Under the pieces are notes generated by a model, which did no database searches, was not told where the DNA came from, and was given only the letters and a program-made list of their open reading frames with translations. Below are positions 1 through 51,625 of a DNA stretch of 64,000 nt, in pieces. Each line of letters starts with the position of its first letter. Within the stretch, counting starts at the first letter, position 1. The translations under genes and the position numbers were made by a program. The stretch comes from Lepidogalaxias salamandroides (Eukaryota): assembly GCA_049190665.1 (NCBI GenBank), contig CM110852.1; one strand, 5' to 3'.

Positions 1-1139
1 CTGAATGATTAATAAGCTATAAGGATGTTCAAATAAACCTTGTTAAAATACTTGTGAGAGTGTGGGAGTCAGTCGTTGGACTCGGGGGGGCTGGGTGAGG
101 CTGCACACCTGTGGGCCAATCTGCAATCAGGCCCACAGGCTTAAACCAGCCACCTCCACACACACTCGAGGCTGAGCCCTGTCCGGATAGTACGTACCAC
201 CTGCTCACTCATTCAACATTCATTTGGGCAATAAACCGGTTTCAACATCGCCCTGAGTCCTGTCGTCAGGGAGAGGCCCTGTAGCCACCATGTGCCTGTT
301 CATTTGGTGGCTGTGGCAAGGGGTACGTCACAATACTGTTGATCTTTTCAGACTTTATACCTCAAATGGCCGTCAAACTGGTGCATAATCAATGGGTGTG
401 ATCTTATAGGCCCAGGGGTTCAAACGTGATCCGGTCACATTCTGGCTATTGGATTAAATCCTGAAACTGGATCAGGTCATCAAATCCTAGCTGTAATCTG
501 GATCAAATCTTCAAAATGCATAGTTCAAATGTACAACATTATATATAATATAATTAATTATAAAAGAAATCTGAATATAAATAAGATGTCATAAGTGTCT
601 TCACAAAATTAATAAACACAACATTGATCACTCATTAATCAAACATGACCACTTGTCCATCTGTAACCCACATTCAACTTGTCAAAAGTCGTTTTTAATT
701 GACTTCTTAAATGGCGTTAAATGTGTATAATGCCACAGTATTCCTGATGTTGTTCTGTACATCCAGCAGGTGGCGCTATGTGGGCTTATGGACAGCCCGA
801 CCCGAACATGCATCACTGCAAACACACTCGTCTATAATACTCATCTATATCCCATGTCTTTTGAACCCTTAAACATCTTCCCGTCGTGTGGTGGTTCAGT
901 ATAGCATGCGTACAATAGTGTTGCAGGGTTCCTAACTTTAAAAACTCTATTTGACTCTTGCTGTGAACCCAGTATGGTGAATGTGTGCACAAACTTAAAC
1001 GAACAGTGTTCTCCTGCTGCACATCTGGAAAGGTTGCGTCACTGAGCAGGGCTCTGGGAACCGGACCAGAGCCCTGCTGCCAGGGTTGGGCCCAGCAGGG
1101 GGGGTCTTATGTAAGGAGAAGCTCTTCAGTCTGCCGGGG

Positions 1140-1600
1140 TTCTGCGTGGTTATATACATGCTGGAAAACCCATCCCTATGTTAATGGGATGGGTTCTGCA
1201 TGGTTCTATACATACTGTAGTAGAACCCATCCCTATTTTAATGGGATGGGTTCTGCGTGGTTATATACATGCTGGAAAACCCATCCCTATGTTAATGGGA
1301 TGGGTTCTGCATGGTTCTATACATACTGTAGTAGAACCCATCCCTATTTTAATGGGATGGGTTCTACGTGGTTCTATACATGCTGGAGAGCCCATCCCTA
1401 TTTTAATGGGATGGGTCCTACATGGTTCTATACATGCTGGAAAACCCATCCCTATTTTAATGTGATGGGTTCTGCATGGTTCTATACATGCTGTAGTAGA
1501 ACCCATCCCTATTTTAATGGGATGGGTTCTGCATGGTTCTATACATGCTGTAGTAGAACCCATCCCTATTTTAATGGGATGGGATGGATGACTGGACTTT
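1140..1600. repeat. Minisatellite, ~60 bp unit x ~8 (copy 2 at 13143..13545, ~7 units)
   Basis: Tandem units of the form ctgcRtggttMtatacatRctg...cccatccctatKttaatgggatgggtt. Each unit contains a palindromic core (cccatccc-tattttaat-gggatggg). The ORF-track ORFs 985..1623, 1178..1465 and 1261..1605 are artefacts of this repeat. Confidence 0.9.
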
Positions 1601-1849
1601 TGCATACTTGCTTACTTACATAACGTAGGAAATGGTGTTGTTAAGGTAATACGCAGGTACAAGGTATGGTTGGTGTGAAGGCTGGACCCTCCTGCATGAA
1701 TTGGTGATTTAATCCTTCATTCAGTTTGTAAGTGATGCAGGTGGGAAATAATCCAAATGCCTTTGGAATGATGGGCTGATAGGCAGACAAATGAAAGAGA
1801 GGACTGGACTAATTGATCATATTTAATTGGCCTATAAGTTACTCACTTA

Positions 1850-2255
1850 TAGGCAGTGGTAGACAGTAACAAAGTACATTTACTTGAGTACTGTACTTAA
1901 GTACATTTTATTTATATTGTACTTTAGACTCCACTACATTTGCGCCGGATAAGCGCGTGACACAGGCGGACGCGCCCAGCCTCACGTAAACAAACCGAGC
2001 AGTCGGGACAGCAGGTTGATAATAATGATAAATGCATGCTCCCTGCATGTTCAAAGAATTGCTACAAGACATCGGAGAGTCTCAGTATTCTCTGGTAATC
2101 GACCAAAGCACCGACGTGGCCGCAGTAAAACAGTTGTGTGCTGTAGTACGTTACTTTAGCGTCTCATTGAACAAGATTGTTTCAACTTTTTTGGGCTCAG
2201 TCGATATGCAGTATAGGCCTACTCATTCTCTCTCTCTCACTCTAACCCCCCCCCC

Positions 2256-2295
<40 letters not shown>

Positions 2296-2960
2296 ATGTA
2301 ACTCAACAAATGTAACTCGTATTAATTATGTTTATCTATATTTGTTTCCATCTTTTGCTGGCAGGGAAAGAGGAGAAGCAAGAGATGCTGACAGTACTAC
2401 AACTGACAGAGACAGACACCAAGAGACAACAGAGACAGACAGGGCGCCTGGCCAATCATAGCGCTTAAGGGCGGGGCTTGTCCAGAAGCGCGGCGCAATC
2501 CATAATAACGCGGGACGGATCCTGGCAAAATGGCGGCTCGCCCATAATGCAACGCGGTGAAAGTCAGCTTCTGAAGCGCGATAACAACTTAACGTCAATG
2601 TTTTTGAATTCAATAAAACCTAGAGGGCTTATTTAGTTGTTGGAGTTAGACAGCTGGACCCTCCTGCATGAATTGGTGATTCAATCCTTCATTCAAAAAT
2701 AAATGCCACGAATATACAGTTTGTAAGTGATTATGCATATCGTGTGAATTAAATGATCATGTATGGCATAATCACATCCATCAAATTGCCAGGGATGGGA
2801 AGTAACGAAGTACAAGTACTTTGTTACAGTACTAAATCGATTTTTCAGTACTTTTGTACTTTTTGGAGTACTTATTTTTCGGACTACTTTGTACTTTTAC
2901 GAAGTACATTTGAACACAAATACTGGTACTTTCTACTCGTTACATTTTCAAAACAAAACA
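1850..2960. mobile_element. Degraded hAT-family element remnant (copy 2 at ~13800..14910)
   Basis: End-like sequences CAGTGGTAGACAGTAACAAAGTAC (1850) and CAGGGATGGGAAGTAACGAAGTACAAGTACTTTGTTAC (2796) resemble the TIR of the intact Tol2-like element at 7843. ORF 2032..2220 encodes ...LVIDQSTDVAAVKQLCAVVRYF..., which matches the conserved hAT transposase motif (xDESTDxSxxEQLxxxxRY). It is flanked by ~70 bp direct repeats at 1679-1745 and 2652-2735. Confidence 0.6.
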
Positions 2961-2982
2961 AAAAAGTCAAAAGTAAGCGGCC

Positions 2983-2988
2983 ACGTGA
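2983..2988. promoter_or_regulatory. Canonical E-box CACGTG ~160 bp upstream of the putative ATG of the coiled-coil gene
   Basis: ggccACGTGac sits in a GC-rich stretch with no TATA box. The paralogous copy is at 14935..14940. Confidence 0.3.
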
Positions 2989-3143
2989 CAGACCCAACGT
3001 TCTATTGACTGGTCTCCACGCGACTCGCAGCGGAATTGCACGAACTTGAACAGACGAGACGAACAAGAAAAGTTAAAACACGACGCACTTGGATTTTGTA
3101 CGATTTTTTAACTACGGCAAGCGACTGGAAATCTCCCGTCATC

Positions 3144-3152
3144 ATGAACCTG
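3144..3152 (+). CDS. Putative first coding exon (M-N-L) of the unrecognised coiled-coil gene, copy 1
   Basis: catcATGaacctg|gtgag: the ATG has a reasonable context and is followed by a GTGAG donor. It joins in phase 0 to the acceptor cacacag| at 3623. This is the weakest part of the model. Confidence 0.3.
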
Positions 3153-3623
3153 GTGAGATTCAGCATTTTCTGTCGGCAAATATCGTGTTTTTACAAAAAA
3201 AATGCCGTTTCTGATGTTTGTTTTTGAGTCGCACCAATCATGATACGCTTTGTGAGTTCATGCTTGTTTAACGAAATATATCAACTACGAAATTAAAATG
3301 TGTGGTCTAAAGAGATCCAGGAGAGGGCGCTGTGGCGCAGGTTAAACACGTTTGCTTTCTGTAAACATGTTCAACAATCCCAAAGCAGACGTGTACGCCT
3401 GTAATGAAGATTGTAATATGAAAGGCCCTCTTTGCCTTCACATTTATTTCATGTAGAATGTGACTTTGAATGATTGGTTTTTAATACAAGTAACCTATTA
3501 AACGATAATGAAATGCCACCCATGGTTAATTCTGTAACACACCTGATCTCTAACCATGAATACATGAGAGAATAAAATGCTTTGGAGTTGGTCTTGAGTG
3601 CCCTCTCTTGGTATCCCACACAG

Positions 3624-3965
3624 GAGTGTGTGCCCCTGCCACCCTGCACCACAGACGGCCCTGATGCTGGCTCCCCTGGCCCCAGCCAGCCCTCCTCGCC
3701 CTCCCTCCCCCTGGTTCAGGGTCACGTAGACCCGCTCCTCCACGCTCCCTCCGCGCCTACACCGGCTACTCCCGGGAGAGTTTCCAGAAGGAAGCGGGTT
3801 CGGCCCCAGCGTTTCCGGGACCCGGGCGATGAGCCGAGCACCGGCATCTCGGCCGTGCCCCCGATCTCGCGGCCGGCCAGCCCTCAGGGAGGCGGAGAGG
3901 AGGGGTCCTGGAGCCCTTCTGACCCCTTCTTTTCCCAGCTAGAGGACTCCTCTCTGGCGGCTGAG
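3624..3965 (+). CDS. Coiled-coil gene exon A (Pro/Ser-rich: ECVPLPPCTTDGPDAGSPGPSQPSSPS...FSQLEDSSLAAE)
   Basis: Acceptor cacacag|GAG. Long open frame (ORF 3582..4028). Donor GAG|gtacag at 3966, ending in phase 0. Conserved in copy 2 (15576..15917) with only a few substitutions. Confidence 0.55.
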
Positions 3966-4085
3966 GTACAGTTTAAGGTCCACCTAATAGCTGGCTGCTG
4001 TTCCTTCCTGCTGCTTGCGTTCCTATAGCGTTGACCCGTCCGCCCCCTCTGTCGTCCTTTCTGTGTGTCTCTCTCTGTCTGTCAG

Positions 4086-4544
4086 ACTCAGGAGAGGAGG
4101 CTGAGGGAGATGGTGCAGGAGCAGCGTCTGGCTGCCCTGAAGGAGCAGCATCTGGCTGCCCTGGAGGAGCCGCTGGAGGAACGCTACCTCCGCAACGCTG
4201 CCGTCTTGCCGGACTGGCGCCCCCGCCGGACCTCCTCCCTGGCCCCACGCGACTCGGGGTCTGGGGTCTCGACGGCTGCGGAGGAGCCCCTGAGGATCCA
4301 CGGCCTCGCGGTGGAGGAGTACCAGAGCCTCTACCACTCCGTGGTGGACCCCCTGCTGGTCACTACCAACGGCAAGCCCCGGAAGTACTCCCTGGACCTG
4401 GGCCGCAGGATCAAGGAGCAGCTGTTCCGGGCTCTCTACTGCCCCGGGGACCAGTCGGTCGCCGTGAGCATCCCGCAGTTTGACCTGGACGTCAGCGGTG
4501 AGCCTAGTTGCTCGCCACCCGCTGCGAAGAGGCACCGGTGCTGA
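4086..4544 (+). CDS. Coiled-coil gene exon or module B (TQERRLREMVQEQRLAALKEQHLAALEE...RKYSLDLGRRIKEQLFRALYCPGDQ...KRHRC*)
   Basis: Acceptor tctgtctgtcag|ACT in phase 0, matching exon A. The frame is open to TGA at 4542-4544. A retained donor-like ctgag|gtacag lies 12 nt downstream. An alternative internal donor AGCG|gtgagc is at 4498. No family was recognised. Confidence 0.5.
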   Translation, partial: TQERRLREMVQEQRLAALKEQHLAALEEPLEERYLRNAAVLPDWRPRRTSSLAPRDSGSGVSTAAEEPLRIHGLAVEEYQSLYHSVVDPLLVTTNGKPRKYSLDLGRRIKEQLFRALYCPGDQSVAVSIPQFDLDVSGEPSCSPPAAKRHRC

Positions 4545-4675
4545 GCTCCGCCTGAGGTACAGAATGAGGTCCACCTAATAGCTGGCTGCTGTTCTTTCCT
4601 GCTGCTTCCGTTCCTATAGCGTTGACCCGTCCATGCCTCTGTCATCCCTTCTGTGTGTGTCTCTCGCTCTGTCAG

Positions 4676-4954
4676 GCTCAGGAGAGGAGGAGGAGGGAGG
4701 TGGAGCAGCGTCTGGCTGTCCTACCGGAGCAGCGTCTGGCTGCCCTGCAGGAGGAGTGTCTGGCTGTCCTACAGGAGCAGCGTCTGGCTGCCCTGCAGGA
4801 GGAGTGTCTGGCTGTCCTACAGGAGCAGCGTCTGGCTGTCCTGCAGGAGGAGTGTCTGGCTGTCCTGCAGGAGGAGCGTCTGGCTTCCCTGGAGAAAAGC
4901 TACCTCCACAACGCCGCTGTCTTGGCCGAGGTGCCGGTGCTGAGTTCCGCCTGA
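4676..4954 (+). CDS. Module C: a second 'intron plus terminal exon' copy, with QEQRLAALQEECLAVL 48-bp in-frame repeats
   Basis: A 118-bp intron-like sequence (gtacag...aatagctggctgc...gttcctatagcgttgacccgtcc...tctgtcag|) is followed by GCTCAGGAGAGGAGG... in phase 0 relative to exon A's donor. It ends in TGA (4952-4954) overlapping the retained donor cctgag|gtacag. Confidence 0.4.
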   Translation, partial: AQERRRREVEQRLAVLPEQRLAALQEECLAVLQEQRLAALQEECLAVLQEQRLAVLQEECLAVLQEERLASLEKSYLHNAAVLAEVPVLSSA

Positions 4955-5076
4955 GGTACAGTATAAGGTTCACCTAATAGCTGGCTGCAGTTCTTTCCTG
5001 CTGCTTCCGTTCCTATAGCGTTGACCCGTCCACGCCTCTGTCATCCCTTCCGTGTGTGTCTCTCTATCTCTGTCAG

Positions 5077-5256
5077 GCTCAGGAGAGGAGGTGGAGGGAG
5101 GTGGTGCAGGAGCAGCATCTGGTTTTCCTACAGGAGCAGCGTCTGGCTGCCCTGCAGGAGCAGCGTCTGGCTGCCCTGCAGGAGGAGTGTCTGGCTGCCC
5201 TTGAGAAACGCTACCTCCGCAACGCCGCTGTCAAGACGGAGCTGAGCTCCACCTAA
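5077..5256 (+). CDS. Module D: a third terminal-exon copy (AQERRWREVVQEQHLVFLQEQRLAALQEQRLAAL...KRYLRNAAVKTELSST*)
   Basis: Same acceptor module, ctctgtcag|GCTCAGGAG, in phase 0. It ends in TAA at 5254-5256. The downstream donor has been lost (gccagg). Confidence 0.35.
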   Translation, partial: AQERRWREVVQEQHLVFLQEQRLAALQEQRLAALQEECLAALEKRYLRNAAVKTELSST

Positions 5257-5524
5257 GGCCAGGCTGCTTTGTACATAACTGTATATAATAGTAATAGATG
5301 TATAACATGATAATAGCATAGTAGTATTTTTAAGACGTATTGAACAATTTAAGTGAGTTTGTTTTATTCCCCCTAAAATCCAAACAAAAAACAATATAAA
5401 AATACACAAAAACCTCAAAAAAACATGAATTATTTATTGTCAAATGTAATTTTGTGTTTTTAACAGTATAGTCGTTAAGCTTGTTTTACAGTGGACTGGC
5501 CAGGTCTGTGTTTCTTGTCTTCAG

Positions 5525-5940
5525 GTTGGCTGATCCATCATTTACCAAAGAGGAGAAGACGGATGGAGACGAAGAGAGACGAAGAGGGAGAGATGCACAG
5601 CGATACAAGGAGAGCCCAAGACAGATGGAGATGAAGACAGCCCCAGGAGGAGAGAGATCAAGAGAAAGAGCTTCTCTAAGGTACACATGTGAAACACTGC
5701 AAAATAAGCTGCACACTGTTGTCTACTGTTGTGACAGTGCATGCTCAGTTCCTTATCTCCCTCCATCAGGCTCAGGAGAGGGGGAGGAGCAGGGTGGAGC
5801 AAGAGGAGAACCAAGAACACAGCCGCACCCCACCACCTGATGCTTCTGCTGCCGCCAGATGACCGCCACATCATGACCGGCCCAGAACACCACCGCCTCT
5901 CATTCATTTACACCCGTCACTGTGTCCAATAAAGTCACAC
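5525..5940 (+). other. Two putative 3' exons or 3'UTR of the coiled-coil gene, with the polyA signal
   Basis: The first exon runs from ttgtcttcag|GTTGGCTG... to ...ctctaag|gtacac (5525..5680) and is K/E/R-rich. The second runs from ctccatcag|GCTCAGGAGAGGGGG (5770) to AATAAA at 5928-5933. The same arrangement is present in copy 2 at 17830..18258. Confidence 0.35.
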
Positions 5941-9962: not shown

Positions 9963-10029
9963 TGACGGGTCAGTGTCCCGTGTGTGGTTTGTGTCCTTCG
10001 ACCGCGTCACATCTCCCTTCGCCCTCCAG

Positions 10030-10352
10030 GTGTCGGACACGGTGGTGGAGCCGTACAACGCCACCCTCTCCATGCACCAGTTGGTGGAGAACACGGACGA
10101 GACGTTCTGCATCGACAACGAGGCGCTGTACGACATCTGCTTCCGCACGCTCAAGCTGACCACGCCCACCTACGGCGACCTCAACCACCTGGTGTCGGCC
10201 ACCATGAGCGGCGTCACCACCTGCCTCCGCTTCCCCGGGCAGCTCAACGCCGACCTGCGCAAGCTGGCCGTCAACATGGTGCCCTTCCCCCGCCTGCACT
10301 TCTTCATCCCGGGCTTCGCCCCGCTCACGAGCCGCGGGAGCCAGCAGTACAG
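10030..10352 (+). CDS. tubb4b: Beta-tubulin exon 5 ([108 protein letters not shown])
   Basis: Acceptor ccctccag|GTG, donor TACAG|gtggga. The protein is continuous with exon 4. Confidence 0.9.
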
Positions 10353-10359
10353 GTGGGAC

Positions 10360-11430
<1,071 letters not shown>

Positions 11431-11595
11431 TAAACGTTGTGTGTCCCTGTGTTGTGCTGTTGAGAAACTAGTGAAATGATACCTGGAAAGGGCTGGGCAC
11501 AAACGGTCGCTTAGCAACCACGACACTAACGGCAGCTGCTAAGCTGATTTTGCTTCGTTTGGGGGCGGGGCTTTTCAGATGACGGGCTGTAGTAG

Positions 11596-12002: not shown

Positions 12003-14203
12003 ACTGAATGATTAATAAGCTATAAGGATGTTCAAATAAACCTTGTTAAAATACTTGTGAGAGTGTGGGAGTCAGTCGTTGGACTCGGGGGGGCTGGGTG
12101 AGGCTGCACACCTGTGGGCCAATCTGCAATCAGGCCCACAGGCTTAAACCAGCCACCTCCACACACACTCGAGGCTGAGCCCTGTCCGGATAGTACGTAC
12201 CACCTGCTCACTCATTCAACATTCATTTGGGCAATAAACCGGTTTCAACATCGCCCTGAGTCCTGTCGTCAGGGAGAGGCCCTGTAGCCACCATGTGCCT
12301 GTTCATTTGGTGGCTGTGGCAAGGGGTACGTCACAATACTGTTGATCTTTTCAGACTTTATACCTCAAATGGCCGTCAAACTGGTGCATAATCAATGGGT
12401 GTGATCTTATAGGCCCAGGGGTTCAAACGTGATCCGGTCACATTCTGGCTATTGGATTAAATCCTGAAACTGGATCAGGTCATCAAATCCTAGCTGTAAT
12501 CTGGATCAAATCTTCAAAATGCATAGTTCAAATGTACAACATTATATATAATATAATTAATTATAAAAGAAATCTGAATATAAATAAGATGTCATAAGTG
12601 TCTTCACAAAATTAATAAACACAACATTGATCACTCATTAATCAAACATGACCACTTGTCCATCTGTAACCCACATTCAACTTGTCAAAAGTCGTTTTTA
12701 ATTGACTTCTTAAATGGCGTTAAATGTGTATAATGCCACAGTATTCCTGATGTTGTTCTGTACATCCAGCAGGTGGCGCTATGTGGGCTTATGGACAGCC
12801 CGACCCGAACATGCATCACTGCAAACACACTCGTCTATAATACTCATCTATATCCCATGTCTTTTGAACCCTTAAACATCTTCCCGTCGTGTGGTGGTTC
12901 AGTATAGCATGCGTACAATAGTGTTGCAGGGTTCCTAACTTTAAAAACTCTATTTGACTCTTGCTGTGAACCCAGTATGGTGAATGTGTGCACAAACTTA
13001 AACGAACAGTGTTCTCCTGCTGCACATCTGGAAAGGTTGCGTCACTGAGCAGGGCTCTGGGAACCGGACCAGAGCCCTGCTGCCAGGGTTGGGCCCAGCA
13101 GGGGGGGTCTTATGTAAGGAGAAGCTCTTCAGTCTGCCGGGGTTCTGCGTGGTTATATACATGCTGGAAAACCCATCCCTATGTTAATGGGATGGGTTCT
13201 GCATGGTTCTATACATACTGTAGTAGAACCCATCCCTATTTTAATGGGATGGGTTCTACGTGGTTCTATACATGCTGGAGAGCCCATCGCTATTTTAATG
13301 GGATGGGTCCTACAGGGTTCTATACATGCTGGAAAACCCATCCCTATTTTAATATGATGGGTTCTGCATGGTTCTATACATGCTGTAGTAGAACCCATCC
13401 CTATTTTAATGTGATGGGTTCTGCATGGTTCTATACATGCTGTAGTAGAACCCATCCCTATTTTAATGGGATGGGTTCTGCATGGTTCTATACATGCTGT
13501 AGTAGAACCCATCCCTATTTTAATGGGATGGGATGGATGACTGGACTTTTGCATACTTGCTTACTTACATAACGTAGGAAATGGTGTTGTTAAGGTAATA
13601 CGCAGGTACAAGGTATGGTTGGTGTGAAGGCTGGACCCTCCTGCATGAATTGGTGATTTAATCCTTCATTCAGTTTGTAAGTGATGCAGGTGGGAAATAA
13701 TCCAAATGCCTTTGGAATGATGGGCTGATAGGCAGACAAATGAAAGAGAGGACTGGACTAATTGATCATATTTAATTGGCCTATAAGTTACTCACTTATA
13801 GGCAGTGGTAGACAGTAACAAAGTACATTTACTTGAGTACTGTACTTAAGTACATTTTATTTATATTGTACTTTAGACTCCACTACATTTGCGCCGGATA
13901 AGCGCGTGACACAGGCGGACGCGCCCAGCCTCACGTAAACAAACCGAGCAGTCGGGACAGCAGGTTGATAATAATGATAAATGCATGCTCCCTGCATGTT
14001 CAAAGAATTGCTACAAGACATCGGAGAGTCTCAGTATTCTCTGGTAATCGACCAAAGCACCGACGTGGCCGCAGTAAAACAGTTGTGTGCTGTAGTACGT
14101 TACTTTAGCGTCTCATTGAACAAGATTGTTTCAACTTTTTTGGGCTCAGTCGATATGCAGTATAGGCCTACTCATTCTCTCTCTCTCACTCTAACCCCCC
14201 CCC

Positions 14204-14245
<42 letters not shown>

Positions 14246-17200
14246 ATGTAACTCAACAAATGTAACTCGTATTAATTATGTTTATCTATATTTGTTTCCA
14301 TCTTTTGCTGGCAGGGAAAGAGGAGAAGCAAGAGATGCTGACAGTACTACAACTGACAGAGACAGACACCAAGAGACAACAGAGACAGACAGGGCGCCTG
14401 GCCAATCATAGCGCTTAAGGGCGGGGCTTGTCCAGAAGCGCGGCGCAATCCATAATAACGCGGGACGGATCCTGGCGAAATGGCGGCTCGCCCATAATGC
14501 AACGCGGTGAAAGTCAGCTTCTGAAGCGCGATAACAACTTAACGTCAATGTTTTTGAATTCAATAAAACCTAGAGGGCTTATTTAGTTGTTGGAGTTAGA
14601 CAGCTGGACCCTCCTGCATGAATTGGTGATTTAATCCTTCATTCAAAAATAAATGCCACGAATATACAGTTTGTAAGTGATTATGCATATCGTGTGAATT
14701 AAATGATCATGTATGGCATAATCACATCCATCAAATTGCCAGGGATGGGAAGTAACGAAGTACAAGTACTTTGTTACAGTACTAAATCGATTTTTCAGTA
14801 CTTTTGTACTTTTTGGAGTACTTATTTTTCGGACTACTTTGTACTTTTACGAAGTACATTTGAACACAAATACTGGTAGTTTCTACTCGTTACATTTTCA
14901 AAACAAAACAAAAAAGTCAAAAGTAAGCGGCCACGTGACAGACCCAACGTTCTATTGACTGGTCTCCACGCGACTCGCAGCGGAATTGCACGAACTTGAA
15001 CGACAGACGAGACGAACAAGAAAAGTTAAAACACGACGCACTTGGATTTTGTACGATTTTTTAACTACGGCAAGCGACTGGAAATCTCCCGTCATCATGA
15101 ACCTGGTGAGATTCAGCATTTTCTGTCGGCAAATATCGTGTTTTTACAAAAAAATGCCGTTTCTGATGTTTGTTTTTGAGTCGCACCAATCATGATACGC
15201 TTTGTGAGTTCATGCTTGTTTAACGAAATATATCAACTACGAAATTAAAATGTGTGGTCTAAAGAGATCCAGGAGAGGGCGCTGTGGCGCAGGTTAAACA
15301 CGTTTGCTTTCTGTAAACATGTTCAACAATCCCAAAGCAGACGTGTACGCCTGTAATGAAGATTGTAATATGAAAGGCCCTCTTTGCCTTCACATTTATT
15401 TCATGTAGAATGTGACTTTGAATGATTGGTTTTTAATACAAGTAACCTATTAAACGGTAATGAAATGCCACCCATGGTTAATTCTGTAACACACCTGATC
15501 TCTAACCATGAATACATGAGAGAATAAAATGCTTTGGAGTTGGTCTTGAGTGCCCTCTCTTGGTATCCCACACAGGAGTGTGTGCCCCTGCCACCCTGCA
15601 CCACAGACGGCCCTGATGCTGGCTCCCCTGGTCCCAGCCAGCCCTCCTCGCCCTCCCTCCCCCTGGTTCAGGGCCACGTAGACCCGCTCCTCCACGCTCC
15701 CTCCGCGCCTACACCGGCTACTCCCGGGAGAGTTTCCAGAAGGAAGCGGGTTCGGACCTTGCGTTTCCGGGACCCGGGCGATGAGCCGAGCACCGGCATC
15801 TCTGCCGTGCCTCCGATCTCGCGGCCGGCCGGCCCTCAGGGAGGCGGAGAGGAGGGGTCCTGGAGCCCTTCTGACCCCTTCTTTTCCCAGCTGGAGGACT
15901 CCTCTCTGGCAGCTGAGGTACAGTATAAGGTCCACCTAATAGCTGGCTGCTGTTCCTTCCTGCTGCTTGGGTTCCTATAGCGTTGACCCGTCCGCCCCCT
16001 CTGTCGTCCTTTCTGTGTGTCTCTCTCTGTCTGTCAGACTCAGGAGAGGAGGCTGAGGGAGATGGTGCAGGAGCAGCGTCTGGCTGCCCTGAAGGAGCAG
16101 CATCTGGCTGCCCTGGAGGAGCCGCTGGAGGAACGCTACCTCCGCAACGCTGCCGTCTTGCCGGACTGGCGCCCCCGCCGGGCCTCCTCCCCGGCCCCAC
16201 GCGACTCGGGGTCTGGGGTCTCGCCGGCTGCGGAGGAGCCCCTGAGGATCCACGGCCTCGCGGTGGAGGAGTACCAGAGCCTCTACCACTCCGTGGTGGA
16301 CCCCCTGCTGGTCACCGCCACCGGCAAGCCCCGCCAGTACTCCCTGGAGCTGGGCCGCAAGATCAAGGAGCAGCTGTTCCGGGCTCTCTACTGCCCCGGG
16401 GACCGGTCAGGGGCCGTGAGCATCCCGCAGTTTGACCTGGACGTCAGCGGTGAGCCTAGTTGCTCGCCACCCGCCGCGAAGAGGCACCGGTGCTGAGCTC
16501 CGCCTGAGGTACAGAATGAGGTCCACCTAATAGCTGGCTGCAGTTCTTTCCTGCTGCTTCCGTTCCTATAGCGTTGACCCGTCCATGCCTCTGTCATCCC
16601 TTCTGTGTGTGTCTCTCGCTCTGTCAGGCTCAGGAGAGGAGGAGGAGGGAGGTGGAGCAGCGTCTGGCTGTCCTACCGGAGCAGCGTCTGGCTGCCCTGC
16701 AGGAGGAGTGTCTGGCTGTCCTGCAGGAGCAGCGTCTGGCTGCCCTGCAGGAGGAGTGTCTGGCTGTCCTACAGGAGCAGCGTCTGGCTGCCCTGCAGGA
16801 GGAGTGTCTGGCTGTCCTACAGGAGCAGCGTCTGGCTGCCCTGCAGGAGGAGTGTCTGGCTGCCCTGCAGGAGGAGTGTCTGGCTGCCCTGCAGGAGGAG
16901 TGTCTGGCTGCCCTGCAGGAGGAGTGTCTGGCTGCCCTGCAGGAGGAGTGTCTGGCTGTCCTGCAGTAGGAGCGTCTGGCTTCCCTGGAGAAGAGCTACC
17001 TCCACAACACCGCTGTCTTGGCCGAGGTGCCGGTGCTGAGCTCCGCCTGAGGTACAGTATAAGGTTCACCTAATAGCTGGCTGCAGTTCTTTCCTGCTGC
17101 TTCCGTTCCTATAGCGTTGACCCGTCCACGCCTCTGTCATCCCTTCCGTGTGTGTCTCTCTATCTCTGTCAGGCTCAGGAGAGGAGGTGGAGGGAGGTGG

Positions 17201-18300
17201 TGCAGGAGCAGCATCTGGTTTTCCTACAGGAGGAGTGTCTGGCTGCCCTGGAGAAACGCTACCTCTGCAACACCGATGTCTTGACGGAGCTGAATTGAAA
17301 TAAGGGGAGTCAGGCGACCAGTTTGTCAAAGAAAAGCATATTTATTGGTAAAGTGCGGGGAGCGGGGGTGGGGGTGTAAGGCAACTCAAATCCTTCCCGT
17401 CTGGGGTCTGGCTTCATCCGGCCTAGGGAGAGAGGGCAGAGGAGAGCGGGTAGGGTTAGTGGGGGCGGCTAGGCCCGACTCTCAGACCTCCGAGCATTGG
17501 GCCTTGGCAATTAGCCTAATGCCGCTCACCTGTTGCTGCTTGCTCAGGCAGTGAACAGGTAATTAGGGACGTACTTGCCCTCAATTAGCTTCCCCAATAG
17601 CCTGCGTTGGGGGAAGGGTCTCTGACCGTGCTGCTGAAGGGGCCTCTGATGCCTACCCCCCCTCTGCCAGGGGCACTGGGGTGCCACACCCCTAAAAACC
17701 AAACAAAAAGCAATATAAAAATACACAAAAACCTAAAAAAAAGAATGATTTATTGTCAAATTGAATTTTGTGTTTTTAACAGTATAGTCGTTAAGCTTGT
17801 TTTACAGTGGACTGGCCAGGTCTGTGTTTCTTGTCTTCAGGTTGGCTGATCCATAATTTACCGAGGAGGAGAAGATGGATGGAGACAAAGAGAGACAAAG
17901 AGGGAGAGATGCACAGCGATACAAGGAGAGCCCAAGACAGATGGAGATGAAGACAGCCTCAGGAGGAGAGAGATCAAGAGAAAGAGCTTCTCTAAGGTAC
18001 ACATTTGAAACACTGCTAAAGTAAGTAAAATAAGCTGCACACTGTTGTCTACTGTTGTGACAGTGCATGCTCAGTTCCTTCTCTCCCTCCATCAGGCTCA
18101 GGAGAGGAAGAGGAGCAGGGTGGAGCAAGAGGAGAACCAAGAACACAGCCGCACCCCACCACCTGATGCTTCTGCTGCCGCCAGATGACCGCCACATCAT
18201 GACCGGCCCAGAACACCACCGCCTCTCATTCATTTACACCCGTCTCTGTGTCCAATAAAGTCACACACATTGGCACACATTTCTGATTGTTGGATATTTT
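12003..18300. repeat. Segmental duplication, copy 2 of the ~6 kb block
   Basis: Same content and order as 1..5990. Differences are: one fewer unit in the hairpin minisatellite; a 3-bp indel near 15003; more 48-bp coding repeats at 16680-16960; a ~400 bp unique insert at 17300-17700; and divergent last modules. Confidence 0.9.
15097..18258 (+). CDS. Paralogous copy 2 of the coiled-coil gene (gene-level span)
   Basis: ATG at 15097; exon A 15576..15917; module B 16038..16496; module C from 16628 with ~9 48-bp repeats and an in-frame TAG at 16967-16969; a divergent module D at about 17160-17300; and terminal exons ending at AATAAA near 18250. Confidence 0.4.
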
Positions 18301-19498: not shown

Positions 19499-48335
<28,837 letters not shown>

Positions 48336-48337
48336 GC

Positions 48338-48487
<150 letters not shown>

Positions 48488-49339
48488 AGAGGTGAGATAA
48501 AGGAAGTGAAAAACCTACCTAAAAACCTACACACACACAAAAAAAACCTACACACTAAAAAAACCTACCTAAAACCTGTGTAAAGCCTACGAGTTGCACA
48601 TAGACCAGTTTCATTATAGAAAACGGGATAATTGTTTTTAATGATAACAGCCTACCTGATCTTTAATCCAGGTAGATTACTTTCATAAAGTAAAGAAACA
48701 CTTGATATTAAATATTTTCGTCTGACAAGTTAAAGTCAATAGTCTAAGTTATAGCTCTATGTACACTCATATAGCTTACTTTACCTTCTTTATTTCCCTA
48801 GATGAGATGTCTTCCAGGGAAAAAGAAAGAAAAGGTTGACAGCAGTCCAGAAACGCTGATTTCCTGGTTGACAGCAGTCCAGACACGCCCCCCTCTTGAT
48901 TGACAGCAGTCCAGACACGCCCCCTCGTCACACAGCAGGAGCTGCTGCCAGAGCCATAGAAAGACAGAGTTGCGTCAATGGAGGGTCCAAAATGATATTC
49001 TTAATGGCCCCACGACCAAGGTCGGTGGAATTTGCTTTCAGTACAACGTGGACAACGTGTCATTGACAAATAGACAAATAACACAGACAGCAACACATGA
49101 CAGGTACAGCAGACGCACAAGGTGAGGACCATAGACAATATTTACATGATTAACACAGAGGTATTTAGATTAAAGTGCAGGTGCGTCGGGATTAGTGCAA
49201 AGAGTTCAGAGTTCTTATGGCGGTGGGGAAAAAGCTGTTTTTGAAGCAGGATGTTCTGGTGGACAGGGATCTGTAGGCCTCCTAGATTATTTTTTTATTT
49301 ATTTTTTGTGCCCTTTGATTGTGTGTTGTATGTATATAT

Positions 49340-50520
49340 ATTAGGGCTGTCAGTTAAACGCGTTATTAACGGCGATAACGCAAACCCATTTTAACGGCGT
49401 CAATTTTTTTGACGCCGTTAAAAAAAAATGGATACGCCCCCCCCCCCCGTCAACAATCGCTAGCGGGGATATACGCGCCACCCCCCCCCCCCCGTCAACA
49501 ATCGCTAGCGGGGATATACGCGCCACCCCCCCCCCCCTGTCAACAATCGCTAGCGGGGATATACGCGCCAGCACCCCCCCCCCCCCCCCCGTCAACAATC
49601 GCTAGCGGGGATATACGCGCCACCCCCCCCCCTCCCCCCCGTCAACAATCGCTAGCGGGGATATACGCGCCACCCCCCCCCCCTCCCCCCGTCAACAATC
49701 GCTAGCGGGGATATACGCGCCCCCCCCCCCCCCCCCCCCGTCAACAATCGCTAGCGGGGATATACGCGCCACCCCCCCCCCCCCCGTCAACAATCGCTAG
49801 CGGGGATATACGCGCCACCCCCCCCCCCCCCCCGTCAAGAATCGCTAGCGGGGATATACGCGCCACCCCCCCCCCCTCCCCCCCGTCAACAATCGCTAGC
49901 GGGGATATACGCGCCACCCCCCCCCCCCTCCCCCCCGTCAACAATCGCTAGCGGGGATATACGCGCCACCCCCCCCCCCTCCCCCCGTCAACAATCGCTA
50001 GCGGGGATATACGCGCCCCCCCCCCCCCCCCCCGTCAACAATCGCTAGCGGGGATATACGCGCCACCCCCCCCCCCCCGTCAACAATCGCTAGCGGGGAT
50101 ATACGCGCCACCCCCCCCCCCCGTCAAGAATCGCTAGCGGGGATATACGCGCCACCCCCCCCCCCTCCCCCCCGTCAACAATCGCTAGCGGGGATATACG
50201 CGCCACCCCCCCCCCCCTCCCCCCCGTCAACAATCGCTAGCGGGGATATACGCGCCACCCCCCCCCCTCCCCCCCGTCAACAATCGCTAGCGGGGATATA
50301 CGCGCCAGCACCCCCCCCCCCCGTCAACAATCGCTAGCGGGGATATACGCGCCAGCACCCCCCCCCCCCCCCCCGGCAACAATCGCTAGCGGGGATATAC
50401 GCGCCCCCCCCCCCCCCCCGCCAACAATCAACAATCGCTAGCGGGGATATACGCGCACGTTAACTATGACATTATGTGATTAATCATGATTAAATATTTT
50501 AATCGATTGACAGCTCTAAT
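49340..50520. mobile_element. Non-autonomous TIR element (1181 bp) carrying an internal ~44-50 bp minisatellite with variable-length poly-C tracts
   Basis: Terminal inverted repeats ATTAGGGCTGTCA (49340) and TGACAGCTCTAAT (50520). Subterminal TTAACG/CGTTAA motifs and an internal palindrome taacggcgtcaa-ttttttt-ttgacgccgtta. The interior holds ~22 tandem units of gtcaacaatcgctagcggggatatacgcgcca(C)10-22. Flanked by (TA)n on both sides. No ORF. Confidence 0.65.
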
Positions 50521-50529
50521 ATATATATA

Positions 50530-51571
50530 TCTACCGGGCCCGTTGTCGGCACAAAGTCAAACACGTTCCCAGTGGGTGTTGGACTCCGCCAAGGCTGCCC
50601 TTTGTCACCGGTCCTGTTTGTGGTATTCATGGACAGGATCTCTAGGCGCAGCCGAGGTGAGGAGAGTGTCCGGTTCGGTGACCTCAGAATTGCGTCTCTG
50701 CTTTTTGCGGATGACGTGGTTCTGCTGGCTTCATCGGACCGTGACCTTCAGCACGCACTGGGGCGGTTTGCAGCCGAGTGTGAAGCGGCCGGGATGAGGG
50801 TCAGCACCTCCAAGTCTGACGCCATGGTTCTCTGCCGGAAAACGGTGGGTTGCTCCCTCCAGGTTGGGAATGAGTCCCTGCCCCAAGCGAAGGAGTTCAA
50901 GTATCTCGGGGTCTTGTTCACGAGTGAGGGTAAAATGGAGCGTGAGATCGACAGGCGGATCGGTGCAGCGTCAGCAGTAATGCGGGCGCTGTACCGGACC
51001 GTCGTGGTGAAGAGGGAGCTGAGCCGGAAGGCGAAGCTCTCGATTTACCAGTCGGTCTACGCTCCTACCCTCACCTATGGTCATGAGCTCTGGGTAGTGA
51101 CCGAAAGAACAAGATTGCGGATACAAGCGGCCGAAATGAGCTTCCTCCGTAGGGTGGCTGGGCTCAGCCTTAGGGATAGGGTGAGGAGCTCAGCCTTAGG
51201 GATAGGGTGAGGAGCTCAGCCTTAGGGATAGGGTGAGGAGCTCAGACATCAGGAGGGAGCTCAGAGTAGAGCCGTTGCTCCTTTGCGTCGAAAGGAGCCA
51301 GCTGAGGTGGTTCGGGCATCTGATCAGGATGCCCCCCGGACGCCTCCCTTTGGAGGTTTTCCGAGCACGTCCAACTGGGAGGAGACCACGAGGTAGACCC
51401 AGGACCCGCTGGAGGGATTATATATCCCTCCTGGCCTGGGAACGCCTCGGGATCCCCCAGGAGGAGCTGGAAAGCGTCGCTGGGGAGAAGGACGTCTGGA
51501 ATAGCCTGCTCAGCCTACTGCCCCCGCGACCCGACTCGGATAAGCGGTGGACAATGGATGGATGGATGGAT

Positions 51572-51625
<54 letters not shown>
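50530..51625 (+). mobile_element. 5'-truncated L2-clade LINE: RT C-terminal half plus 3' tail with (GGAT)n(AT)n
   Basis: ORF 50572..51210 contains the RT motifs GLRQGCPLSPVLF and LLFADDVVLL (YXDD-type box). ORF 51233.. contains RWFGHLIRMPPGRLP..RPRGRPRTRWRDY, typical of the L2/CR1-type ORF2 C-terminus. It ends in ggatggatggatggatggat(at)n at 51555-51625. An internal 26-bp triplication lies at 51160-51240. Confidence 0.8.

Follow-up and report, generated by a model that had tools for sequence, protein, structure and literature searches.

Upstream of PARP4 in Lepidogalaxias salamandroides lies a dense tandem array of short units, each closed by a run of cytosines. What kind of element carries this array, and how did the array arise within it? 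We analyzed the locus in a window of 64,000 nucleotides of contig CM110852.1 (assembly GCA_049190665.1), and all positions given here are those of the window. A first-pass annotation of the same DNA had described an element bounded by TIRs with a tandem array inside, and this structure was recovered: the locus is a class II element without coding capacity, delimited by TIRs and with tandem repeats in its interior (Table 1). The same annotation had rejected a CRISPR-like reading of the alternating repeats and spacers, and our results agree: CRISPR arrays are prokaryotic and alternate invariant repeats with unique, similarly long spacers, whereas here the apparent spacers are C homopolymers and the neighboring genes are vertebrate (PARP4, tubulin, and LINEs).

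Examination of the termini defined an element of 1,177 bp (49342-50518) with 11-bp TIRs, TAGGGCTGTCA and TAGAGCTGTCA, which differ by one mismatch and form an inverted pair with a spacing of 1,155 bp. The left end reads TTAGGGCTGTCA (49341-49352) and the right end, on the opposite strand, reads TTAGAGCTGTCA (50508-50519). Apart from these two ends, no further TIR match was found within the 64-kb window. The TIRs had originally been reported as perfect and 13 bp in length, whereas alignment of ATTAGGGCTGTCA (49340-49352) with ATTAGAGCTGTCA (reverse complement of 50508-50520) revealed identity at 12 of 13 positions. Their leading AT belongs to the flank. In 30 unique flanks at other insertion sites of the repeat family described below, the sequences varied up to the last base before TAGGG, the point at which similarity always stopped, indicating that the true TIR is 11 bp. 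Outside the TIRs, ATATATAT was present on both sides (8/8 positions), but it lies within low-complexity (TA)n and is compatible with a TSD without being proof of one.

The minisatellite accounts for approximately 86% of the copy. With the array removed, the remaining backbone of approximately 200 bp is MITE-sized and harbors no ORF of note. The full copy of 1,177 bp exceeds the usual size of a MITE and was found once in the 64-kb window; as to the copy number by which MITEs are recognized, the family sharing its right arm occupies at least 25 independent sites, all in other organisms.

Table 1. Positions of the element, its parts, and the adjacent genes in the 64,000-nucleotide window
Feature	Position	Strand	Remarks
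PARP4 exon 1 (approximate exon end)	48210..48335	-	ATG at 48335
Left copy of putative 8-bp TSD, ATATATAT	49334..49341	.	In (TA)n tract; identical to 50519-50526; fits nTnnnnAn
Left TIR, TAGGGCTGTCA	49342..49352	+	Family boundary at TAGGG, 30 unique flanks
Left subterminal arm	49353..49429	+	TAACG/CGTTA-rich
Perfect hairpin in left arm	49389..49423	+	15-nt arms, 5-nt loop
Partial unit (unit 0)	49430..49448	+	GGATACG followed by C12; like the 3' end of the core plus C tract
Minisatellite	49449..50456	+	21 cores (30 bp, GTCAACAATCGCTAGCGGGGATATACGCGC), each with a C-rich tract after it
Higher-order repeat of 6 units, approximately 289 bp, three copies	49539-49833, 49834-50122, 50123-50426	+	
Right subterminal arm	50457..50507	+	ATTAA/TTAAT-rich; homologous to a multi-copy repeat family
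Right TIR, TAGAGCTGTCA (minus strand)	50508..50518	-	One mismatch to left TIR
Right copy of putative 8-bp TSD, ATATATAT	50519..50526	.	
5'-truncated LINE (C-terminal half of RT and C-terminal domain)	50533..51575	+	(GATG)n tail; outside the element

The array itself was then resolved into units. The earlier estimate of approximately 22 repeats was sound as to the array and was refined to 21 full cores and one partial unit. The proposed scheme of units that each end in a C run also stood; the ranges given for it (units of 44-50 bp, runs of C10-22) did not, as we measured periods of 44-52 bp, C-rich spacers of 14-22 nt, and longest pure C runs of 10-19 nt, homopolymer lengths which may be partly wrong in the assembly. 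Some C tracts are interrupted by one T or contain a CAGCA insertion. The cores were 99.4% identical, with 4 substitutions in 630 nt, and shuffles of the window produced 0 core matches. TRF detected a period of approximately 50 bp and, in addition, one of 289 bp (3.4 copies, 95% matches), and units were most alike when compared at an offset of six. In three pairs the units were identical even in C-tract length and in where the T interrupts the tract, indicating that the variation in tract length is inherited rather than random. Duplication of 6-unit blocks accounts for at least part of the growth of the array. This 289-bp, 6-unit higher-order period had been absent from the first description of the locus.

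Long homopolymers are error-prone on all sequencing platforms, and the array or its poly-C lengths might have been created by errors in sequencing or assembling homopolymer-rich DNA. We consider this very unlikely. The C-to-G variant of the core, the T-interrupted tracts, and the CAGCA spacers recur in register every six units, and random homopolymer error would not yield unit pairs identical to the length of the tract.

No second core or unit was found in the 64-kb window outside the array, and an exact 24-mer of the unit had 0 matches in the metagenome, GTDB-genome, and viral collections, which hold very little fish DNA. A search in protein space with the array ORF returned no match. In an exhaustive representative search, ORFs of the array and left arm matched only unrelated repetitive proteins. 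One of these proteins (P0144) was traced to a locus (L050) with a 45-bp repeat that is unrelated at the DNA level. Minisatellites of other, unrelated kinds are numerous in the 64-kb window.

The two arms between the array and the TIRs have nothing in common beyond the TIR. The left arm contains five TAACG/CGTTA pentamers in approximately 107-109 nt, against 0.09 expected (P=4e-8), together with a hairpin predicted to be stable as single-stranded DNA (dG -17.2 kcal/mol, z = -6.5). A palindrome had already been recognized here and is present, while the length assigned to it, 29 nt, was too short: its perfectly complementary arms and loop (15+5+15) make up 35 nt. The AT-rich right arm, 62 nt including the TIR, contains four ATTAA/TTAAT motifs, against 0.22 expected (P=9e-5). 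No homologue of the left arm was found among the retrieved family copies, and the left-arm pattern GGGCTGTCA..GTTAA..CGCGNTANTAACG had 0 matches in GTDB genomes and viral contigs, the searched collections containing very little fish DNA. The left end is tied to the repeat family by the 11-bp TIR only. One relative, L040, weakly resembles the left arm at its other end (CCGTTAAAAA..ATGGA), a likeness that was not significant.

The right arm, on the other hand, has relatives. It aligned with contigs L028 (88% over 69 bp, E=4e-18), L027 (85% over 68 bp), and L035 (81% over 63 bp), and these alignments run for approximately 66 nt from the very tip and end where the array begins. An intron of the PARP4 ortholog of another fish (locus L001; TAGGGCTGTCGAATCGATTCAAAT...) was 82% identical over 49 bp. 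Approximately 18 type-A copies aligned more weakly, as did a zebrafish 3'UTR given in PMC7837478, which contains TTAGGGCTGTCAATCGA... and was the only useful match of the terminal sequence in a full-text literature search. A consensus pattern built from the L001 and zebrafish termini was used to scan metagenome contigs and matched 34 of them, nearly all of which have this terminus and, next to it, sequence rich in ATTAATC(G/A)C. The same pattern had 0 matches in the viral collection, indicating that the family matches are not due to chance. One matching contig (L042) proved to be a bacterial chance match, and two others (L044 and L014) were chimeric.

These results define a teleost family with the terminus TAGGGCTGTCAATCGATTAAAA...ATTAATC(G/A)C (contigs L013-L045, L001, and the zebrafish 3'UTR), the tip of which is identical to that of the element. 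Right arms of the two are 81-88% identical over approximately 66 nt, and both prefer AT-rich and (TA)n targets. In the window copy, by contrast, the interior is replaced by the array, and the left arm matches no retrieved copy. The relatives retrieved come from other organisms and not from the Lepidogalaxias source genome. The first-pass annotation had named as a refuting outcome that the TIR match be unique to this locus and the unit a local satellite without TIRs elsewhere; homology of the right arm to the family terminus at no fewer than 25 independent insertion sites indicates that the TIR is not such a chance match. In approximately 300 kb of fish DNA around homologs of PARP4 and the LINE (Goodea, Scortum, Merluccius polli, Leuciscus, Sinocyclocheilus, and others), a single partial family copy, L001, was detected, suggesting that the family is sparse in those species. 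The family also resembles an element that is abundant in percomorphs and is rich in GATTAATCGC at one end and in GTTAACGCG at the other, the same asymmetric pair of end types.

Which superfamily do these ends indicate? The tip of hAT TIRs follows the consensus YARNG, and the tip of the element fits it. Among the 30 unique family flanks, collected with a search pattern fixed to TAGGG and for this reason biased against alternative tips, A was present at -2 in 23 (P=0.001) and T at -7 in 17 (P=0.14, a trend that is not significant alone), and G and C were nearly absent from -7 to -2, leaving an AT-rich zone of approximately 7 bp. Five family insertions, the window copy included, were located in (TA)n. 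Two complete relatives have unlike ends as well: L036, of 363 bp, is flanked by AAATTGCT and GAATTGTT (6/8 positions), and the flanking duplication of L040, of 381/390 bp, agrees at 4/8. The sole perfect 8-bp duplication among complete copies is that of the window, in uninformative (TA)n. For hAT elements of the Ac/Hermes type, the 8-bp target is 5'-nTnnnnAn-3', and the ends of Hermes, Ac, and Tol2 are dissimilar, each with its own subterminal repeats (PMC10368747). The YARNG tip, the A at -2 within AT-rich flanks, the duplications compatible with 8 bp, and the dissimilar ends with subterminal repeats together favor hAT. Judged from these terminal features, the element most likely belongs to the hAT superfamily, an assignment that is probable and not proven. 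We infer it from the element and its relatives, as neither an autonomous partner nor a transposase ORF was found in the retrieved family contigs, including the longer ones. In L001, a CAGAGCTGTCA site close to a fragment of a hAT transposase was discarded as a lead, since the match does not exceed chance and the gene lacks its 5' part.

A Helitron, Harbinger, or Tc1-like type had been suggested for the element at first. Helitrons have no TIRs, begin with 5'-TC, end with 3'-CTRR, have a hairpin 10-20 nt upstream of that end, and insert between A and T without duplication. The element has TIRs, starts with TAGGG, lacks both 5'-TC and 3'-CTRR, and has its only strong hairpin in the left arm, so that the Helitron assignment was abandoned.

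The other two proposals amount to a MITE of PIF/Harbinger (TWA target) or Tc1/mariner (TA target) origin in place of hAT, which appears improbable. The local sequence does invite such a reading: both TIRs of the window copy are preceded by T (TTAGGG / TTAGAG) and, further out, by TA, T occupies -1 in 18 of the 30 flanks, and L036 can be read as TTA-GG(G)CTGTCAA...TTGACAGCC-TTA if a 1-nt deletion is allowed. The left TTA and the right TAA of the window copy, however, are reverse complements and not direct repeats, the T required by Harbinger is replaced by C, A, or G at -1 in 12/30 flanks, and L040 gives ATA / TAT. As for Tc1/mariner, TA is not a conserved flank; the dinucleotide before TAGGG (-2/-1) is mostly AT or AC, and even a shift of the tip by one base (YTAGGG) places T-A at -3/-2 in at most 12/30. 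The tip of the element is also unlike CAGT-type ends. We therefore retain the hAT assignment in what follows.

With the boundaries and relatives in place, we propose an origin for the array. It is probable that a non-autonomous cut-and-paste element, most likely hAT, left a copy in (TA)n at the 5' junction of the LINE and that the minisatellite grew in place at a later time. A transposon copy with a backbone of approximately 200 bp would have inserted into (TA)n at the 5' junction of the truncated LINE, approximately 1 kb upstream of PARP4, where the empty site would have read ...GTATGT-ATATATAT-CTACCGGG... before insertion. The ancestral single copy may have had the form ...GGATA(TA)CGC-Cn-GTCAACAATCGCTAGCGGGGATATACGCGC-right arm, in which a segment of approximately 35 nt was bracketed by a direct repeat of approximately 12 nt, GGATA(TA)CGCGC. 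This segment would have expanded in place through replication slippage or unequal exchange, with single units added first and the 6-unit (289-bp) block duplicated afterwards to give approximately three copies. At the left edge of the array lies a partial unit, and at the right edge a full core runs directly into the right arm that is homologous to the family; unit 0 provides the direct repeat that brackets the ancestral monomer. For miDNA4-type MITEs, short direct repeats on both sides of a segment have been suggested as the driver of internal expansion (PMC12628747). The bracketing direct repeat, the core identity of 99.4%, and the local higher-order repeat make in-situ expansion the best explanation, and it is the most likely origin of the array.

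Alternatively, the array may be a host or otherwise borrowed minisatellite captured by the element, for example through template switching in gap repair, or part of a mobile satellite sub-family that seeds arrays genome-wide. Satellite monomers or arrays are carried in many copies by Xenopus miDNA4 and bivalve DTC84/pearl, family homology stops where the array begins so that the core is not demonstrably family-derived, and unrelated minisatellites are abundant in the window. We nevertheless regard such an origin as rather unlikely. The partial unit at the left edge with its GGATA(TA)CGCGC repeat is what in-situ expansion predicts, the near-identity of the cores and their local higher-order organization point to a recent local expansion, and neither the 64-kb window nor the searched collections, poor in fish DNA, yielded a second unit. 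That the copy represents a lineage-specific hAT-type MITE sub-family, in which a monomer of the 30-bp core and poly-C travels with the element, is unlikely.

The architecture was then compared with known systems. TIR elements with central arrays are a well-documented class that comprises miDNA4, Xstir, DTC84, and terMITEs, with DINE/Helentron elements on the Helitron side (PMC9659126, PMC12628747). Among them, Xenopus miDNA4 is a Tc1/mariner MITE with tandem repeats (Scalvenzi & Pollet 2014, via PMC9659126 and PMC12628747), and Xstir/Xmix (Hikosaka & Kawahara 2004) and Donax trunculus DTC84 (Satovic & Plohl 2013) are tandem-repeat MITEs as well (PMC9659126, PMC12628747). Like miDNA4, Xstir, and DTC84, the element is TIR-bounded and non-coding, with an array of short monomers at its center, a monomer bracketed by short direct repeats, and an array copy number that is presumably variable. 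It differs from them in that it is hAT-like, whereas they belong to another superfamily, and a homopolymer C run of 10-19 nt at the end of the monomer is not described for them in PMC9659126 and PMC12628747. Helitrons and Helentrons with central tandem repeats (DINE-1 and bivalve Helentrons) share the plan of conserved ends around a central satellite-like array, but the absence of TIRs, the TC start, the CTRR end, and the absence of duplication that characterize them are not true of the element.

Non-autonomous hATs and hAT-derived MITEs (Drosophila 'mar', PMC3517528; Hermes, Ac, and Tol2, PMC10368747) resemble the element in their short TIRs with a YARNG start, in 8-bp-compatible duplications with A at position 7 of the octamer and a tendency to T at position 2, and in dissimilar ends with their own subterminal repeats and no coding capacity. 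They typically have no internal minisatellite, in contrast to the element. These comparisons suggest that its architecture belongs to a known class, within which it is distinguished by a probable hAT origin and by a long homopolymer in each monomer.

To place the element relative to PARP4, the neighboring exons were compared with those of other fish. They match fish PARP4 fragments with a BRCT / PARP / VIT / VWA architecture, and exon 1 is 62% identical to the PARP4 BRCT exon of Goodea atripinnis. The distance of approximately 1 kb to the PARP4 start given in the first-pass annotation was confirmed as 1,007 bp from the ATG on the minus strand. On the sense strand of PARP4 the C tracts are poly-G, and 14 canonical G4 motifs (minus strand) are located 1-2 kb from the ATG. 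It is conceivable that these tracts fold into G4 structures or, on the C-rich strand, i-motifs.

Such motifs on the sense strand near the gene, along with the high homogeneity of the cores, might be taken to indicate that the array is a functional cis-element, with approximately 20 G4/i-motif tracts retained upstream of PARP4 to modulate transcription or replication. This is highly improbable. Recent expansion already predicts homogeneous cores, and no Rfam match (48-52 kb of the window) or other conservation signal was obtained. Moreover, in Goodea atripinnis the 3.5 kb preceding PARP4 exon 1 contain neither the array nor the element, an absence consistent with lineage-specific insertion. The element appears to have no host function.

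If the array arose as we propose, the locus would be a textbook case of a minisatellite arising in a dead DNA transposon, with a bracketing direct repeat and with growth first by units and then by blocks. For annotation, the region upstream of PARP4 is best described as transposon-derived and not as regulatory or CRISPR-like. If instead the array-bearing form were both mobile and numerous, it would be a natural system that spreads G4/i-motif tracts by transposition, and it would add a hAT-derived case to examples of the transition from transposon to satellite that are mostly based on Tc1/mariner and Helitron elements. Should the lineage-specific sub-family exist, dozens to thousands of G4/i-motif-prone arrays may lie near genes, and the element would be a 'mobile G-quadruplex minisatellite' and the seed of a new satellite in this fish.

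Finally, we examined the LINE beside the element. As had been reported, the element abuts a truncated LINE, which begins at approximately 50533, just past the (TA)n flank, and shows a Pfam RVT_1 match (E=6e-17); no continuation of the LINE was found to the left of the element. Its earlier classification as L2 is doubtful. The 3' end of the LINE reads ...GCGGTGGACAATG(GATG)4GAT, followed by (AT)n, which matches the Rex3 tail, GCG(GAA)2(GATG)n (PMC6274825), and one homolog of the LINE bears the RTE-type name F52C9.6. The (GATG)n tail and the RTE-type names of the matches point to Rex3/RTE, suggesting that the neighboring LINE is probably Rex3/RTE-like and not L2.

The first-pass annotation had assigned the LINE beside the element to L2. 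Its tail, ...GCGGTGGACAATG(GATG)4GAT followed by (AT)24, resembles the published Rex3 tail, GCG(GAA)2(GATG)n (PMC6274825). Relatives of its RT, sharing 75-90% identity, were found in very distant teleosts, and an RTE-type name was attached to one relative. From the Rex3-like tail and the RTE-type name, this LINE is likely Rex3/RTE and not L2.

We also compared the start of each repeat core, GTCAACAATCGCT (49449-49465), with the TIR-proximal sequence of the transposon family, GTCAATCGATT (50501-50518). The two are similar except for a 2-nt insertion; this match, which is very short, could hint that the monomer came from a duplicated terminal segment of the transposon.

Minisatellites are numerous in the window, and the 42-bp array in the first PARP4 intron is one among them. 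A distance of 5 bp separates the PARP4 ATG (48335, minus strand) from a perfect (AC)71 microsatellite upstream of it, which places the repeat within the 5'UTR or core promoter region. A segment of about 5 kb appears to be duplicated, with copies about 12 kb apart. The two copies share the same ORFs, and 57-bp and 24-bp minisatellites are common to both but differ in copy number.

Repeats and other features in the window
Feature	Position	Strand	Remark
~5-kb segment, apparent copy 1	985-5900		
Beta-tubulin exons	9973-11433		between the two ~5-kb copies
Minisatellite, 23 bp x 26	10365-10964		between beta-tubulin exons
~5-kb segment, apparent copy 2	12988-18230		
Minisatellite, 55 bp x 6	30291-30617		
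Minisatellite, 42 bp x 5.7	47922-48159		98% matches
(AC)71 microsatellite	48340-48481		
LINE	50533-51622	+	
Minisatellite, 26 bp x 3.2	51162-51245		within LINE

In another fish (GCA_977065575.1), the PARP4 ortholog has a one-ended (truncated) copy of the transposon family in one of its introns (L001:9010-9060). This copy inserted into the same gene independently of the window element, probably by coincidence.

In two metagenome contigs (L044:7975-8063 and L014:4228-4374), the eukaryotic transposon terminus was fused to unrelated sequence, with the junction at the same point (...GATTAATGAGGCT...). The unrelated portion of L044 is clearly a bacterial operon. Both contigs are probably chimeric assemblies.

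A complete relative of 381/390 bp, with identical flanks, was detected in five different JGI metagenomes (L025, L033, L034, L039, and L040), so these contigs probably derive from one common host organism, which may be a non-fish species. A 9-bp internal duplication (TAGCATTTC) distinguishes the 381-bp form from the 390-bp form.
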